64,000 nucleotides of DNA, taken from positions 2,604,001 through 2,668,000 of the forward strand of contig NC_043000.1 in the NCBI RefSeq assembly GCF_006345805.1. The letters are read 5' to 3'. Under the pieces are notes generated by a model. That model saw only the letters and a list, made by a program, of their open reading frames with translations. It did not search any database and was not told where the DNA came from. This DNA is from Octopus sinensis (lineage: Eukaryota). Both the position numbers and the translations under genes were made by a program. Positions 22,199 through 42,472 of the stretch are shown here, piece after piece. Every line of letters begins with the position of its first letter. Position 1 is the first letter of the stretch.

Positions 22199-22699
22199 TA
22201 GTAACTTGTGGAGTTTTAGCTCCATGCTATTCATAACTAGAAAAGGTGGTGTACAAATATCTTATTTCCTTGATGTGTATAATGTGTATAGTCTTTGTGC
22301 TATTGAATGAGACTGCAACCATGTCTGCATTGGAGAATGTTTTGAAGTGTTGTGACATTTACATAAGAATATATATTGTTACAAGTGACTAAGGTATGTT
22401 GAAGTGATTAAAGCGTATTTCAGTGACAAGGATGTGATTCAATGAAGGAGGCAAGGATTTTATGGATTGAAATGTGTTTTAGCAATTAAGGTGTGTGTTT
22501 GAGTGATTGAGATGTGTAATGTGTGTTTCTATAATTGAGGTGATGGGATGTCATCATCATCATCATCATCATTTAGCGTCTGTTCTCCATGCTAGCATGG
22601 AGAACGGACGCTAAATGATGATGTGTGTTGTAATAATTGAGATGCATGTTTTACAATTGAATTGTTTGTTTTGATGATTGAAATGCATGTTTTAACGAT

Positions 22700-23720
22700 T
22701 GAAGTGTGAGTTTTAATGAGTGAAGTGACAGTTTTAGTGAGTGGAGTGTGAGTTTAGAGTGAAGTGTGAATTTTAGGAACTGAAGTGTGTAAATGAAATG
22801 TCAGTTTTAGCGAGTAAAGTGTGAATGTTAGTGAGTGATGTGTGAGTTTCAATGAGTGAAGTGTGTGTTTTAATGAGTGAAGTGTCAGTTTTAGTGAGTG
22901 AAGTGTGAGTTTAGAGTGAAGTGTAAATTTTAGTGACTGAAGTGTGTAAATGAAATGTCAGTTTTAGCGAGTAAAGTGGGAATGTTAGTGAGTGATGTGT
23001 GAGTTTCAATGAGTGAAGTGTGTGTTTTAATGAGTGAAGTGTCAGTTTTAGTGAGTGAAGTGTGAGTTTAGAGTGAAGTGTAAATTTTAGTGACTGAAGT
23101 GTGTGAATGAAATGTCAGTTTTAGCGAGTAAAGTGTGAATGTTAGTGAGTGATGTGTGAGTTTCAATGAGTGAAGTGTGTGTTTTAATGAGTGAAGTGTC
23201 AGTTTTAGTGAGTGAAGTGTGAGTTTAGAGTGAAGTGTAAATTTTAGTGACTGAAGTGTGTGAATGAAATGTAAGTTTTAGCGAGTAAAGTGTGAATGTT
23301 AGTGAGTGATGTGTGAGTTTCAATGAGTGAAGTGTGTGTTTTAATGAGTGAAGTGTCAGTTTTAGTGAGTGAAGTGTAAGTTTAGAGTGAAGTGTAAATT
23401 TTAGTGACTGAAGTGTGTGAATGAAATGTAAGTTTTAGCGAGTAAAGTGTGAGTTTCAATGAGTGAAGTGTGAGTTTTAATGAGTGAAGTGTCAGTTTTA
23501 GCGAGTGAAGTGTGAATGTTAGTGAGTGATGTGTGAGTTTTAGCCTATGAAGTGTGAGTTTCAATGAGTGAAGTGTGAGTTTTAATGAGTGAAGTGTGTG
23601 TTTTAGTGTGAAGTTTGAGTTTTTGTGAGTGATGTGTGTGCTCTGGTGACTGAAAGGCATGTTTTAGTGACTGAAGCGTGTGTTTTAGTGAATGAAGCGT
23701 GAGTGAATTTTGAATTTTAG
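22700..23720. repeat. Minisatellite of ~21-bp monomers with a 157-bp higher-order repeat
   Basis: gaatgttagtgagtgatg recurs at 22823, 22980, 23137 and 23294. Confidence 0.9.
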
Positions 23721-24482
23721 TAAGCGAATTATGTGTTTTAATCATTGAAGTGTGTGTGTATTAGGCATTGAATTGTGATTTAATGCTGAATTGTGTGTGA
23801 TTTAATGACTAAAGTGTATTTTTTAATGATTGATGTGGGGTTTTTTTTCTTTATTGATTGAAGTGTGTATTTTAGTGACTGAGGTGTGTGATTAAATTAT
23901 TGAGGTGTGTGTTTTAATTATTGAGGTATATGTTTTAATGAGACAGGGGTGTATATTTTAATAATTGAAGTGTCTGTCTAAAGGATTGAACACGTATATG
24001 TGTGTCTCTTTATTATGATTGAACACTTGTATGCGCATGTTTTAATGATCTGACACCATTTTTGAAAACATCTAAAATGAATTTCTGTGAAATGCGTTTC
24101 TAATGTCCACTTAATTTACATTTTAAAAATTGTATTTTATTGATTTTCTTCAGTGGTATGGAAACTGTTAAATAATCCCTCCATACAAGCACACATTTTA
24201 GACACACACACATATATACGCATATAAACACATATTAAACACACATATACACACACTCACATTCACATACACAATCTGCACACATTTCTGCTAAAGGGCT
24301 ATTTATTGTGTGTATAACTTCATATTAATTAAAATTCCTGTGTTATGTAAGTACGTATACTTGTATGTGTGCATGTGAGTGTGTGTGTCTAGGTGTGTCT
24401 CTATACGTATGCACATGCAGTATGTATTGGTGTATGTTTGCATGTATAAATGTATACACATGTGTATGTGTGTATATATATC

Positions 24483-32773: not shown

Positions 32774-34475
32774 TATTTCCTTATTTAAAACTCAATCTTT
32801 TCTACTCTCGGCACAAGGCCCGAAATTTTGGGGGAGGGGGCCAGTCGATTAGATCAACCCTAGTATGCAACTTGTACTTAATTTATCAACCCCAAAAGGA
32901 TGAAAGGCAAAGTCGACCTTGGCGGAATTTGAACTCAGAAATACCACTAAGCATTTTGTCCAGCATGCTAACATTTCTGCTGCCTTTATTTAGAGCTCAT
33001 TACTTCAAATAATGTGAAGGCATGTGGCTTAGGGACTAGGGTATTCGGCTCATGATCATAAGGTCGTCTGTTCAATTCCTGGTGACATGTCGTGTCCTTC
33101 AGCAAGACACTTTAATTTTACATTGCTCCAGTCCACTCAGCTGGCAAAAATGAGTAGTACCTGTAATCCAAAGGGCCAGCCTTGTCACAATCTGTGTCAC
33201 TCTGAATCTTCCTGAGAACTATGTTAAGGGGACATATGTCTGTGGAGTACTCAGTCACTTGCATGTTAATTTCACGAGCAGGAGTGGCTGTGTGGTAAGT
33301 AGCTTGCTTACCAACCACATGGTTCTGGGTTCAGTCCCACTGCATGGCACCTTGGTTAAGTGTCTTCTACTATAGCCTCGGGCCAACCAAAGCCTTGTGA
33401 GTGGATTTGGTAGACGGAAACTGAAAGAAGCTCGTCGTATATATTTATATATATATGTGTGTGTGTATGTATATGTTTGTGTGTCTGTGTTTGTCCCCCC
33501 AACATCGCTTGACAACCGATGCTGGTGTGTTTACGTCACCCGTAACTTAGCAGTTCAACAAAAGAGACGGATAGAATAAGTCCTGGGGTTGATTTGCTCG
33601 ACTAAAGGCGGTGCCCCAGCATGGCCGCAGTCAAATGACTGAAACAAGTTAAAGAGTAAAAGAGTATGCCTTTGTGTCTGTGTTTGTCTCCTGCTGCCAC
33701 TTGACAACCAGAATTGGTGTGTTTACATCCCCATAACTTAGCAGTTTGGCAAATGAGACCAATAGAATAAGTAACAGGCTTTAAAAAAAATGCAAGTCCT
33801 GGGGTCAATCTATTCAACTCAAAACCCTTCAAGACAGTGCCCGTCATATATATATATGTGTTTGTGTGTCTGTGTTTGTCCCCCAACATCGCTTGACAAC
33901 CGATGTTGGTGTGTTTACGTCCCCGTAACTTAGCGGTTCGGCAAAAGAGACCGATAGAATAAGTACTAGGCTTCCAAAGAATAAGTCCTGGGGTCGATTT
34001 GCTCAACTGAAGGTGGTGCCCCAGCATGGCCACAGTCAAATGACTGTTCCGTTGATCAGGTCAACTGGAATCCTTGCCATCGTTACAAACACAGTTCCAG
34101 TTACTCCAAATACAATACATGTCGTATAATTCCACTTCTAGCAATTCCCCACCAACATCTGTCCTGTATACAGGAAGCAATGTTACTGGTATTATCTTTA
34201 TATGTTTATGCTGCTGGATTTTTACAGGCTATATATAACTATTGTATTAGGGAAGCTATATGTTCTGATTGTTAGCTAGGTGCTGGCATATTTAATTAGG
34301 TAAGCCATGAAATTTTAATTAATTAAAATTAGAGCATCTGTGGTGTGAACAATAATTATCTAAATTGGGCTAAACACTGGCGTGTGTATATGTGTGTGTC
34401 TGTGTATATATAAATATATATGTGCTATGTATATACACGATATATATATATATATATATGCCTTGTATACACATG

Positions 34476-34687: not shown

Positions 34688-34755
<68 letters not shown>

Positions 34756-34855
34756 TGATTTTTCTGTGCTTGCCTGGGTCAGATAGAATTTCTTGAGACA
34801 GATTTTCTATGGTCAGTTTACCTTCTTGGTGCCCACCCTCACTTGTTTCCATGTA

Positions 34856-35290
34856 AAATATTAAAATTACTAAGTCTCTCTAAAGCGACAGCTTTAGTCT
34901 TATGTTTATAAGACTGCCATATAAGTATGGCGATAAATATTAATTTCAAGTAATACTGCCGTAATCTCCTTTAGAGAGACTTAGCAATTTTAATATTTCT
35001 ATTATTGAAAACAAGTGGATGTATTCCACTGAAACTAGGTAAATAGATTCTTCGAACAGGGACAGTCAGTAGCGACACCTGCTGGGTCTGACTACGCTGC
35101 ATTGATAAAGGGCAAATACCCTGAAACATGTCTGCAGCTGTCTGACTGGCAGGATGAAGCGGCTGACCTCCCCTGTTCGAAGGTTTATAATGGATGCAGG
35201 TTGTGTGTCAAATAGCTAGCTTGAGGCGGTGGCCTCTTGGAGCTAATCAGCGACAGTTTTAGTCTTATATTTATAAGACTGCCATATAAG
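34856..35290 (+). mobile_element. Hammerhead-containing element with a 365-bp direct repeat (pLTR/retrozyme-like), interrupted by a LINE
   Basis: agcgacag..tagtcttat..ataagactgccatataag occurs at 34884 and 35249; the sequence resumes at 38442-38466. Confidence 0.65.
35096..35138 (+). ncRNA. Minimal type I hammerhead ribozyme, U3-A8 core variant
   Basis: GCTGCA-TTGATAA-AGGG(CAAATA)CCCT-GAAA-CATG-TC-TGCAGC: 6-bp stem I, 4-bp stem II, palindromic loop III, GUC cleavage site. Confidence 0.8.
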
Positions 35291-38200
35291 ACTGGCACAA
35301 AAGATTGTACAGCAGCTAACCTGGCTTCATCAAACCCAAGCTCACAGATGGGACTACCCTCAATATACAAGACCACCACAGCAAACAGACCCAAGGTGGA
35401 CACCGTCGGCAACAACATACACCTCACCTCGATGCTCCTACTGAACATCAGAGGACGGCAAACACTCAATAACAGGACAAAAATCCCGTTCTTGAGAGAC
35501 TTTGTTGCATGCAATCAAGCCTTATGCATAGCACTTACGGAAACGCACCTGAAACCGGACATAGCAGATGCAGAATTACACATACCACAGTATGTTGTAC
35601 TACGGACCGACAGAAAAGAAAGGAGTCATGGAGGAGTTGCTATGTACATCCATGAGGACCTCACACCCCAGGTCCTTTTGTCATACTCAAACTCGTGTGT
35701 GACACACTAATTGTACATATAAGGCAACTTGATGTAGTTGTGTGTGTTACATATCGCCCTCCAGATGCCCCAAGCCATGTAGGCAAGTTTGAAGACTGCC
35801 TTATAAAAATAGAAGTTCTGATTACATTAGAACAACACATAAGTGTACTTCTTATGGGAGACTTCAATCTACCCAATGTCAGATGGCCCGAGGGCCTTTC
35901 TCTCCCAGGAATGACAAGATGTGAACGAGGACAGGCGAGGTCCCTCCTGAACCTCATCAACACCCTGTACATGGAGCAAGTAATACTCCAACCAACCAGG
36001 GCAGGTAACACACTGGATCTCTGCTTCACAAATAATATGGATCTCATCCATAATGTGAAAGTGACACCGACACTACTCTCGGATCACAACATGGTAGAGC
36101 TGACCATGTACGGGCCAAAGGAAAGCATGGACATGCAGCCTACAAGAAACCCTCAGAATCTTTCCAGCTTGAACTTCCATAAGGCAAACTGGAAACAAAT
36201 TGAGAAAGAGATCCTCAAACAAAACTGGCCTGAATGCCTCCCCTCGCCAGACATCGACGTGAAACTTCAACAATTCATGTCTGTAATGCAAGCCATATGC
36301 TACAAATGTGTCCCAGAGAGAAAGGCCACTGTACACAAGAACAAAATCCCCAGAGAGAGGAAAATTTTAATGAGACGGCGTACAAAAATTTCAAATCGTA
36401 TAAACAAACAAATTGAAAGCAGTGAAAAGTCCTGCCTGAAATTAAAACTGTTGGAAATTGAAAAATGTCTGCAACTCTCCCATGAAAAGGAAAGAGCAGA
36501 CAAAGAAGCCTGGGCTATAGACAACATAAAATCTAACCCCAGAGCTTTCTACAGGTATGCCAAAGAAACAGCTACGGTGCACTGTAGGATAGGGCCACTC
36601 CTTGTAAAGGATGGCACACTCACAGGAAAACCAATAAGGGTAAGTGAAATACTGAATGAGCAATTCAAGAGTGTTTTCACTCCACCCCTTGGGCATTTCC
36701 AAATCACCAATCCAACTGACTTCTTTACCACTGCAGATATAAAATCAGAGGCGGCGACGATAAATTACATCGATATAAAGGAAGACGATGTAATAAAGGC
36801 TATAGATGAAATGAAAACAGACTCAGCTACTGGCCCCGATGGATTCCCGGCAATCCTCCTAAAAGTATGTAAGAGAGTCCTAGCAAGACCACTGCAGTCT
36901 CTCTTTCAGAGCTTCCTTGCAGCTGGCAAACTTCCAAGAAAACTGAAAGAAGGTAAAATATGCCTTATTCATAAAGGAGGTAGCAGAGTGGAGGCCAAGA
37001 ACTACAGACCTATCTCTCTGACCTCACACATCAGCAAGGTCACGGAATGAATAGTCAGAAGGAAACTGATCACCTTCCTTGAAGAAAATGACTTGCTGCC
37101 TGACACCCAACATGGTTTCCGACCAGGGAGAAGCTGCTTAACTCAGCTCCTACAACACTATGACTGGGTGCTGAAACGACTGCTCAACCACTCTAATGTG
37201 GAAGTGATATATCTTGACTTTGTAAAGGCCTTTGATAAAGTCGATCATGGAATGATATGTCACAAACTGCGTGATCTTAGCATAGTTGGAAAACTGGGAG
37301 AATGGCTTCATGACTTTCTGAAAGATAGAAGTCAGGTGGTAGTAGCCAATGGGGCCACTTCCATTAACACGCAAATAGTGAGCGGTGTTCTGCAGGGCAC
37401 TGTTTTGGGACCACTACTGTTCATAATGGCCCTCTCAGACATGCCCTCAGCCACGCAGAGAGCCACGATCACAAGTTATGCAGATGATACAAAAGTTTCA
37501 CAGGCAATACAGAACCCTAAGGACACTAAACGCCTGCAATGTGAGCTGGACGAAATATACAAGTGGGCTGAAAAGAATAGCATGCAGTTTAATGCTGAAA
37601 AGTTTCAAGCTTTATACTATCAGCATGCAAAACTAAATGCAATACCCAATGAATACACTGGACCGGAGGAATTGCAATCCCAGACCTGGGTATTTACATG
37701 AGTGATGACGCAACCTTTCGTGTACATGTTGCTAAATTGGCAATGAAATATAGACGACTGGCCGGATGGATTCTCAGAACCTTTAGAACAAGAGAACAAG
37801 AAACCATGATGGTCCTCTGGAGGACACTTGTCCTAAGCCACTTTGACTATTGCTCTCAGTTATGGTCACCATCCAGTGTCAAGTTGATCACAGAACTTGA
37901 GGCGATCCAATGTAGCTACACGAAGAAGATAGCCTCTATGCAGAATATAAGCTACTGGGAAAGACTCAAGAGATTAAAACTATATTCCTTGGAGCGTAGG
38001 CGGGAAAGATATGCCATAATATACATCTGGAAGATGTATATTACATCGAGAATTACACAAATGCCAGAACTGGGCGCCACTGTGTGGTGCCTAGGACTAC
38101 AAATTTGCCATCAAGATGTAGGACAAGATACTGTGATAGCCTGGGCTTCCGAGACCCACAGCTCTTCAATATCCTCCCGAAGAACCTAAGAGACCTGCAT

Positions 38201-38441
38201 GGGGTGGATGCAGATGTCTTTAAAATGAAACTGGATCTCTTCCTGTCAGGTATCCCAAATGAACCAACTTCACGGCAGGAGGTGCAGATGAGGGCAGCCG
38301 CATCGAACTCTCTCATGCACCAAATGGCAGTTGCTAAAAAGCATTCGTGAAGTAAAACCATGTAGCAACACCAAATGGCGGTGCCCCAGCATGGCCACAG
38401 CTCATGAGCTGAAACTAGAATCAATCAATCAATCAATCAAT
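35291..38441 (+). mobile_element. CR1-group LINE, ORF2 (APE endonuclease + RT) nearly complete but disrupted
   Basis: ALTETHL, GDFNLP, SDH, YLDFVKAFD and YADD motifs. Frameshift about 35695, stop at 37048, further lesions about 37685 and 38040. 3' stem-loop and (AATC)n tail. Confidence 0.95.
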
Positions 38442-38467
38442 CATATGTATGGCGATAACTATTAATA

Positions 38468-38498
<31 letters not shown>

Positions 38499-38589: not shown

Positions 38590-39039
38590 GGGCCATTGAA
38601 AAAATGCTATGAAAATGACCGTTTTATATATATATATATATATATATATACTCTGTACTCTTTTACTTGTTTCAGTCATTTGACTGCAGCCATGCTGGAG
38701 CACTGCCTTTAGTCGAGGAAATCGACCCCCAGGACTTATTCTTTGTAAGCCTAGTACTTATTCTATCGGTCTCTTTTGACGAACCGCTAAGTGACGGGGA
38801 CGTAAAAAAACCAGCATCAGTTGTCAAGCGATGTTGGGGGGACAAACACACACACATATATATACATATATACGACGGGCTTCTTTCAGTTTCCGTCTAC
38901 CAAATCCACTCACAAGGCTTTGGTCGGCCTGAGGCTATAGTAGAAGACACTTGCCCAAGGTGCCACGCAGTGGGACTGAACCCGGAACCATGTGGTTGTT
39001 AAGCAAGCTACTTAGCACACAGCCACCCTGCGCCTATAC

Positions 39040-40491: not shown

Positions 40492-41255
40492 CAGTACAGT
40501 GCAAAAGTCTTCGGTCACTTTAAATTATTGTAAATTTCTACTAATTGCCAACTTATGAGTGGCTGTTTTGCATTGTGTTTTTCACAGATGAAATATTAGC
40601 CCTGTTGGTGTCATTTCCATACCTAATCATTATATTTTGTAGTAGGGGTTCAGAACGAAATGGGAAGATGTGAGATGACCACTAAAAATGGCCGTGCAAA
40701 AGTTTTTGGCCACCTCACATAAATCAATCAAGGCCAACCCCGCCTCAAATGGCTTCTGTGCCGGTGGCACATAAAAAGCACCATCCGAACGTGGCCGATG
40801 CCAGCACTGCCTTGACTGGCTTCTGTGCCGGTGGCACATAAAAAAGCACCAACCGATCGTGGCCGATGCCAGACCCCTCTGGCACCTGTGCCGGTGGCAC
40901 GTAAAAAGCACCCACTATACTCGCGGAGTGGTTGGCGTTAGGAAGGGCATCCAGCTGTAGCAGCCCCTGGCTCCCCAGACCCTGGTCGAACCGTCCAACC
41001 CGTGCTAGCGCAGAAAACGGACATTAAACGATGATGATGATAATGACACAGTGTTTTAAAACTGAAAAATGTATGTCATGAAAGTTTATTACATAATGTT
41101 CATTTCAAGAAGTTACTGTACATTGTTAATATTTCATGTGGCTTCCCTTAGCTTGAATAATTGTTTCAATGTGCCTAGGAAGAGATGTGTACAAATCCTT
41201 CACAGGTCTGAGATGAACTTTCTTTGTTGTTTCTCTGGTTGTAAATGTTGCTTCA
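40492..41255 (-). mobile_element. Tc1-like 3' remnant with an inserted repeat
   Basis: DLYTSLPRHIETIIQAKGSHMKY C-terminus and a cagtacagtgcaaaagt TIR-like end. Confidence 0.65.
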
Positions 41256-42110
41256 GTTAAGAGATTTTTTAGGTTGGGTGCTTGACATCTGCTGTATTTT
41301 GAATCTGTTATTAATTTGCTCATTTTTAATGATTGTTGAAGAACTGGGAGATATTTTTTTGCAGTATTGATGATTTTGCGATTTCTTGGGTTGTGGCTGA
41401 AGACAAAAGGAATGCCTATGAGTTCATTTTTATTTTTGTATTTGTTTTCCTCTGAGGTCCGTAGTTGGGGTGTTTTTTGTTTTGGTGTTTACTTTGTCAA
41501 TCTAGTAGGGTACTTTTGTTCTTTTAGAAATATTTTTAATGCTTGTAATCTTTTATCCCTTAATTCTGCATCTATTACTATCATTCATCATCATTGTTCG
41601 ACCGTGGTCAAGACAATGGAATTTACCATGCTACGCTAGACTTTACGGTCCATCATGGCATTACGGAGGTCCTGTTGCTGGATGCCTGTATCCCTGGAGA
41701 TTACATCAGGGTAGGAGAGTGTGCGCCCTCTGGTATTGCGAGTAGATGGCTTCCAGAGGAGAAGAGTAGAAATTACCTCTTTTTCAGCTCTACAACAATG
41801 TCCAGCAAACTGGACTCTCCTACCTTTCACCTATTTCTATAGTGCAAATTCAGTATAGGGTATGTTTCTTTTGGTATGGGAGGAATGAAAGTTCAGATAT
41901 TGCTGTATGTCTGTAGTTTTGTAGAAGAGATCTGTTTTTATGGTGTTATCTTCTTTAATTAGAATTATGTTTAAAAATGGTAATTCCTTTGTGTGTTGTT
42001 CCATAGTGAATTTTATTGAGGTATGTAAATTATTTAAAAGTGAGTGAAAGATTCCGAAGTCTTCTTGGTTTTTGGTCCAAAATATAAAATAGTCATCCAA
42101 ATACTGCTTC
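41255..42110 (-). mobile_element. Penelope-like element RT remnant
   Basis: YLDDYFIFW...NNLHTSIKFTME...LPFLNI...TDLFYKTTDIQQYLNFHSSH.KRNIPY and linker QAPNLKNLL; interrupted at about 41585-41836. Confidence 0.85.
41585..41836 (-). mobile_element. RTE-group LINE 3' fragment nested in the Penelope remnant
   Basis: RRVQFAGHCCR...LLLWKP...RGR...AMMDRKV with a (TGA)n tail. Confidence 0.7.
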
Positions 42111-42472
42111 TTAATTGTCTTTTTACATAATTGGATAAATGTTTCTGTTGGTTAGCAATACAGTTTTGACCTCTGAGAAGCCCGTTACAAGTTCGTATGT
42201 ATTCATTTATAAGTTATTAGATCTGTTTATGAAAACTATACTAGGAAATGTATGAAAATTAGTTTTAAAAAACCGCAAAAGGCAAGCCTGAAATGTAATC
42301 CACTATGAATTCCAATGGGGGTCGAAGTCTGATACAGAAGCATGTAATTTTCCTAAGTGATCTGCAAGAGTTGTTCCCCTTGATGCCAAAATTCTAGTAA
42401 TTTACGATAGCAGCCTCCGTAACAATATGCAACTGTTTCAGGCATGTTATCCATCATATTAGTAATTTTAAT

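Follow-up and report, generated by a model that had tools for sequence, protein, structure and literature searches.

Non-LTR retrozymes have already been described in animals, together with the proposal that Penelope-like elements mobilise them (Cervera and de la Peña 2020, PMC7229834); their units measure 350-390 bp in the mussel and 330/350 bp in the axolotl. In the papers cited here, the enzyme that mobilises animal retrozymes, whether from circles or not, is still a proposal (PMC7229834; bioRxiv 10.64898/2026.07.22.740005), and eight of nine Xenopus retrozyme dimers did not cleave (bioRxiv 10.64898/2026.07.22.740005). Penelope-like elements are described as carrying tails and inverted 5′ copies, as starting at either of two internal sites and as inserting into AT-rich targets (PMC8557442, PMC11167929), and ribozyme mutants of one such element were unaffected in their insertion in vitro (PMC11167929). 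The hammerhead core, for its part, has a known natural covariation in which U3-A8 takes the place of C3-G8, reported to be active in vitro (Perreault 2011, PMC3088659); in Schistosoma, the Cercyon minimal hammerhead with U3-A8 has about 1,300 matches (Cervera 2014, PMC4209133). A U3-A8 core is thus not new, being already known in nature.

Here we describe a hammerhead-bearing locus within a window of 64,000 nt from the genome of Octopus sinensis, which is 2.72 Gb in size and rich in microsatellites. Like the animal non-LTR retrozymes (PMC7229834), the family represented at this locus has a non-coding unit of similar size with a GC content below 50% and a tandem period, a canonical type I hammerhead with a weak palindromic helix III, a strongly folded monomer and co-resident Penelope-like elements. 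It differs from them in its core, which combines U3-A8 with A10.1-U11.1; unlike the long arrays of published retrozymes, it consists mostly of dispersed arms of 0.2-1.9 units and of head-to-head inversions. With the U3-A8 hammerheads of PMC3088659 and PMC4209133 it shares the identical 3-8 covariation, but the scaffold is a canonical one of 6 bp and 4 bp in a unit lacking an ORF, and its sister families carry C3-G8, U3·G8 and C3·A8.

The family also resembles Poseidon PAc of Anolis (PMC11167929) and the elements of the Craig 2021 survey (PMC8557442) in having two internal 3′ ends that define a tail. As in these Penelope-like elements, the tail is present at one end only, the 5′ copy is inverted and truncated, the surroundings are AT-rich or (TA)n, and the hammerhead lies upstream of the 3′ ends; unlike them, the family has no ORF and its tail is about 60 nt long rather than 30-40. 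The Xenopus retrozymes, likewise proposed to be non-autonomous Penelope-like derivatives, share with it the many dispersed monomeric copies (bioRxiv 10.64898/2026.07.22.740005). The Xenopus work argues from co-occurrence and from homology to the Penelope-like terminal repeats (pLTRs), whereas the link in the octopus is the insertion signature, pLTR homology not having been found for two Penelope-like families. Within a literature covered in part and without Repbase, and in which supplements of the retrozyme papers may list similar elements, our searches turned up neither a description of this family nor a count of one-short-one-long pairing in retrozymes.

The hammerhead and the unit that carries it

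The hammerhead originally predicted from the sequence is present on the forward strand (Table 1), with a predicted cut after C35132 (C17). Sequence inspection bears out its stems I and II and its GUC site, the core that departs from CUGAUGA, and the outward extension of stem I, whose named outer pairings all form within the 133-nt hairpin; none of 200 shuffled sequences was as stable as this hairpin. The core elements of a type I hammerhead are present: a Watson-Crick 3-8 pair, G5, A6 and A9, G12, A13 and A14 (with GAAA in the core), the A15.1-U16.1 pair and an NUH site. A second departure in the core, the A-U identity of the 10.1-11.1 pair, had been overlooked. The motif had also been called minimal, which is the wrong class. 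Minimal hammerheads of Schistosoma are described as having a helix II of 7-8 bp, a helix I of 4-5 bp and a bulge preceding stem II (PMC4209133), whereas here helix I is 6 bp, helix II is 4 bp, and helix III is short and palindromic; by the description given in that paper, this is a canonical animal type I hammerhead. At the level of bases, loop 2 (CAAAUA) is the one known from Schistosoma, and loop 1 has the 5′ U and the 3′ pyrimidine of a putative loop 1-loop 2 contact (PMC2632901). Rfam returned neither a hammerhead nor any other credible match at gathering score across the whole window, and no hammerhead match over 34700-35500 at E up to 10, an absence that may come from the variant core.

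Table 1. Features of the locus, in positions of the window
Feature	Position	Strand	Remark
Inverted 5′ arm	34856-34885	-	unit positions 86-115; outer end near the family 'long' 3′ end
Full 365-bp unit, non-coding	34884-35248	+	7/365 positions differ from subfamily column majority
Small hairpin preceding short end	34916-34931	+	predicted in four-family alignment
Family 'short' 3′ end position	34940-34946	+	unit 57-63; ~177 nt beyond cut site
Family 'long' 3′ end position	35001-35005	+	unit 118-122; ~238 nt beyond cut site
Long imperfect hairpin extending stem I	35050-35182	+	133 nt, z = -6.8
Loop-1 flanking bases of hammerhead	U35139 and C35095	+	
Type I hammerhead	35096-35138	+	U3 = 35102, A8 = 35107, A10.1-U11.1
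Stem I GCUGCA/UGCAGC	35096-35101/35133-35138	+	
Hammerhead core UUGAUAA	35102-35108	+	
Stem II AGGG/CCCU, loop 2 CAAAUA	loop 35113-35118	+	
Palindrome ACAUGU (loop 3)	35126-35131	+	GUC site ends at 35132
Hairpin with compensatory changes in four related families	35213-35245	+	candidate protein-recognition site
Second unit, start only (42 bp)	35249-35290	+	runs to LINE insertion point
Broken endonuclease-RT LINE, (AATC)n tail	35291-38442	+	later insertion, foreign to element
Element remainder, 19 bases	38448-38466	+	reaches short 3′ end
(AT)n run adjoining element 3′ end	38467-38498	.	as in most copies

The locus is one copy of a family of 365-bp non-coding units, split by a LINE. The predicted 30-bp inverted copy at its left end holds, matching 34969-34998 at 29 of 30 positions and sharing a 2-nt overlap (34884-34885) with the forward arm; an older host repeat extends up to 34856, and an apparent continuation of the inverted arm to 34840 was rejected as part of that repeat. 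None of the seven departures from the subfamily majority falls in the long hairpin, and the 60 nt lying between the short and long 3′ ends constitute the 'tail'. The 365-bp repeat stood in part: the period is confirmed in other copies, but only about 41-58 bp recur at this spacing in the window, which therefore contains a single ribozyme. Nor does the copy end at 35290, as had been supposed, since this is where the LINE inserted and the last 19 bases lie beyond it.

The LINE, which carries Exo_endo_phos_2 and RVT_1 domains and which from its motifs we take to be CR1-like, is flanked by an imperfect duplication (ATATAAG at 35284-35290 and ATATG at 38443-38447). We considered it as the element's own ORF and rejected this, because the element ends beyond the LINE and a close LINE copy lies near only one of 29 other loci (L020), at another position. 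The copy obeys the two-end rule set out below: its left arm is of the long type, and on the right it stops at the short end. Interrupted by a LINE and holding a single ribozyme, it has probably reached a dead end. Elsewhere in the window lie a large, GT-skewed minisatellite (22465-23990; periods 21 and 157 bp) and nested copies of a short interspersed repeat (33496-34046 and 38620-39000), a common one that many of the sampled loci also have in their flanks. Degraded fragments of a Penelope-like RT occur on the reverse strand (41126-42151); a search with them led to the intact family described below.

The family, its core variants and the ribozyme fold

Copies of the family number in the hundreds and are dispersed genome-wide. 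Exact core patterns for two subfamilies matched 138 and 188 places in a genome search, a looser core pattern matched 631 and a 31-mer from outside the ribozyme matched 499, all with no control matches. Whether other copies keep U3-A8 had been proposed as a check, and U3-A8 is the family state. Among 100 matches listed for each exact-core subfamily, 97 and 100 have it, the exceptions being two A3·A8 and one U3·G8; the 100 listed for the looser pattern comprise 96 U-A, 2 C·A and 2 C-G, the two C-G places being more distant relatives. A C3-G8 pattern in the family's own context had no match in the genome, and U3-A8 is thus not independent decay; other C3-G8 hammerhead-like motifs in the genome number 577, against 12 in controls. 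L107 and L108, both older copies with A at position 3 (A3·A8), possibly form a small broken-core lineage.

Three related families align with the locus family (family 1) over the stretch between a point about 60 nt beyond the cut site and the long end. Counted over aligned rows, from which seven known duplicates were dropped and in which a few places may appear twice, the 3-8 pair is U-A in 147 of 152 rows of family 1, U·G in 15 of 16 rows of family 2, C·A in 14 and U-A in 13 of the 27 rows of family 3, and C-G in 23 of 28 rows of family 4. Both family 3, in which A·A occupies the base of stem II (10.1-11.1), and family 2, with its GUU site and its C·A mismatch in stem I, were amplified nonetheless, which speaks against activity being strictly required. 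Family 2 (L152, L161-L172) is young, with 165 exact core matches, U3·G8 and the same two-end design. The order of the 3-8 changes is not given by a tree of 62 copies built with no outgroup and with the trait columns retained.

Tandem ribozymes occur in L007, L016 and L201; most copies carry one or none. The majority lie dispersed, and the longest of those sampled reach 3-4 units. The tandem of about 3.5 units in L201 (1050-2330) has private variants in common, and its inverted arm is another variant; this mix hints at two RNA templates in one insertion, or at later duplication. None of the sequencing runs listed is registered as RNA. Contigs from four presumed-RNA runs span the unit and contain variants of the family, such contigs being blind to ends, strand and circles.

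The double change of C3-G8 to U3-A8 had been taken to argue for selected activity. Selection is supported by the relatives of the locus copy, but U3-A8 alone is weak evidence for it, because all copies inherit this pair from the source element and because it is a published natural variant. In 12 copies picked by hand to span the lineages, both partners vary in 11 of the 14 pairs, and 94.6% of cells are paired at the true register compared with 27-50% when the register is slid, in a control that ignores relatedness. Stem I occurs as GCUGCA/UGCAGC, GCUACA/UGUAGC, UCUGCA/UGCAGA and UCUGUG/CACAGA, all compensatory; stem II is AGAG/CUCU in one family 4 lineage; and the centre of loop 3 is AU, GC, UA or CG as lineage states, which are all four self-complementary dinucleotides. 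On these alignments, the compensatory changes that distinguish subfamilies and sister families are better evidence of selection than U3-A8. A lower rate of core mutation was rejected as evidence of selection, as one count was biased by the choice of copies and another by CpG content.

When the unit is folded as a circle, stems I and II have pair probabilities of 0.85-1.0 and A15.1-U16.1 has 0.0; the circular monomer fold (z = -6.0 against 40 shuffles) is that of a stable, self-paired monomer. In the natural tandem of L007, secondary-structure prediction gives a cost of +0.4 kcal/mol for the dimeric active fold and of +13.5 for two monomeric folds, in agreement with the dimer behaviour published for hammerheads with a weak helix III, as described in PMC4209133, PMC7229834 and PMC3088659. 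The hammerhead of this family is thus predicted to cut as a dimer, and the single-ribozyme copy at the locus would, on the same folding models, cut poorly alone.

Insertion ends and co-resident Penelope-like elements

Insertions were mapped at 74 loci, which include 97 of the first 100 places listed among the 499 that the 31-mer matched. Two fixed internal sites account for the ends of 114 of 131 arms, with 57 at unit 52-72 and 57 at 112-134, mostly at 57-63 and 118-122; the other 17 end elsewhere. Two-arm head-to-head structures make up 48 of 79 insertions, their junctions mostly overlapping by 0-7 bases, and in every one of the 39 with both ends intact a short end is combined with a long one (p = 4e-12). 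(TA)n adjoins 80 of the 114 arm ends. The copies thus combine two fixed 3′ ends, 5′ truncation, an inverted 5′ copy and AT-rich flanks, the traits associated with Penelope mobilisation. Of these 114 arms, 61 cross the cut site and 21 are longer than one unit, the extension being the unit again; a pile-up of 5′ ends just past the cut site was not significant (11/72 vs 10/138, p = 0.09). Arms differ from one another at 486 of 10,210 sites, and repeats within an arm do so at 428 of 7,727. These similar figures, meant to separate circle from multimer templates and one from two RNAs per inverted insertion, are confounded by gap placement and recurrent CpG changes.

In the single-arm insertions of L032-L104, (TA)n is found at the 3′ end in 21 of 26 and at the 5′ end in only 4 of 26, and in L089 the 3′ flank repeats the element's own last bases; stuttering of the reverse transcriptase, later expansion or loss of the 5′ target could each produce such patterns.

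The same genome contains a young Penelope-like family, presumably Neptune-like from its motifs. It has a unit of about 4.26 kb and open RT + GIY-YIG frames of 775-777 aa, in which GIY-YIG scores above the cut-off and RVT_1 just below, and most sampled copies are 98-99% identical. At 30 loci it shows two 3′ ends up to 47 nt apart with (TA)n flanks, and a short end paired with a long one in four of four inverted pairs. From this shared insertion signature we infer that the class of enzyme acting on the retrozyme is Penelope-like. A BLAST comparison of the retrozyme unit with the terminal repeats of two Penelope-like families found no similarity. The end motif TATTAAT, common to the retrozyme and the intact element, was rejected as a mark of partnership because the sister families end otherwise.

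Other observations concern the Penelope-like copies themselves. In L144 (5920-5985) and other copies of the intact family, the terminal repeat contains a hammerhead-like motif, located 139 nt ahead of the short end, whose position 4 is C (CCGAAGA); U·U occupies the base of its stem II, and its site is CUA. In L141, L142 and L144 the RT-GIY-YIG frame of this family is preceded and overlapped by a second open frame, which is about 450 aa long and has no Pfam match. Retrozyme copies adjoin Penelope-like copies across (TA)n-rich runs in L150, L151, L152 and L262, and family 1 was found in two of 20 long Penelope-like loci; such adjacency probably comes from a shared target preference.

Competing explanations and meaning

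In our judgement the locus is probably a copy of a non-LTR retrozyme whose U3-A8 type I hammerhead is predicted to cleave in dimeric form and whose RNA is likely copied into the genome by a Penelope-like RT-endonuclease. A 365-bp non-coding unit, a type I hammerhead and tandem repeats in some copies fit the size and structure of such an element, for which units of 150-450 bp are expected. The original prediction of a 'retrozyme monomer or pLTR' was right in kind, and its first half is favoured. That the copies are instead truncated pLTRs of an autonomous Penelope-like element outside the sampled set is improbable. The tail, inversion and (TA)n signature are the same as in autonomous elements, U3-A8 in animals was first seen in Penelope-like terminal repeats (PMC4209133), and the sampled loci are only part of the family. 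However, the 21 over-unit arms run into another unit and not into coding sequence, and no ORF is attached to any copy among 127 loci of the several hundred. Penelope-like protein matches occur in only four of these 127, at differing places; the 5′ flanks of 29 single arms have nearly nothing in common (two pairwise matches), and the ribozyme has the canonical architecture of the retrozyme type. A foldback or satellite repeat at the DNA level with a chance hammerhead-like motif would agree with the missing Rfam match and the many inverted repeats, but we regard it as scarcely credible given the fixed, strand-specific 3′ ends with variable 5′ truncation, the covariation that fits hammerhead geometry and a homologous family with the canonical C3-G8.

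A more serious challenge, although still unlikely, is that Penelope-like enzymes do mobilise the family while its hammerhead has become weak or can be dispensed with; the family would spread from uncut read-through of tandems, and U3-A8 would be tolerated drift. The comparison of families speaks against the preferred reading here, as sister lineages with apparently damaged cores were amplified (C3·A8 with A·A in 14 of 27 rows, U3·G8 with a stem I mismatch in 15 of 16); so do the arms that cross the cut site without a significant stop and, in published work, the normal insertion of ribozyme mutants in vitro (PMC11167929) and the inactive Xenopus dimers (bioRxiv 10.64898/2026.07.22.740005). Set against this are compensatory changes that recur in stems I and II, a palindrome that persists with four different centres, the retained loop contact bases and the in vitro activity reported for U3-A8 ribozymes (PMC3088659).

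Under the retrozyme reading, copies with at least two tandem ribozymes would be transcribed, and the palindromic stem III of two ribozymes, as folding and covariation suggest, would pair and allow cutting after GUC to give 365-nt monomers. A lone ribozyme would be unable to close stem III, so that released monomers would be protected, and circles may then be closed by a host ligase, as in published retrozymes. The putative Penelope-like enzyme would nick AT-rich DNA and start reverse transcription at either of the two sites 60 nt apart; where both target strands prime, each would use a different site, which would yield head-to-head arms with a few-base microhomology joint. Copies are 5′-truncated and often extend across the cut site and beyond one unit, which means a template that was a circle or an uncut multimer. 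We suggest only tentatively, and with considerable doubt, that the Penelope-like RT-endonuclease acts as a dimer on retrozyme circles, with two internal starts that are both obligatory and non-equivalent, one per nicked strand, and that it may itself add the (TA)n at the 3′ ends by telomerase-like stuttering.

What this family adds is a clean insertion signature common to a retrozyme and an intact co-resident element, together with a natural series of core variants. Because the retrozyme insertions obey the two-end rule of the young, intact Penelope-like element, the question of mobilisation becomes testable by an existing assay, described in PMC11167929; if the two-start reading is true, this genome offers a matched retrozyme and intact enzyme for its proof. 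Within one clade, the hammerhead 3-8 pair occurs as C-G, U-A, U·G and C·A, and the four related families are thereby a natural test of how much change a hammerhead core tolerates and of how important cleavage is for spread.
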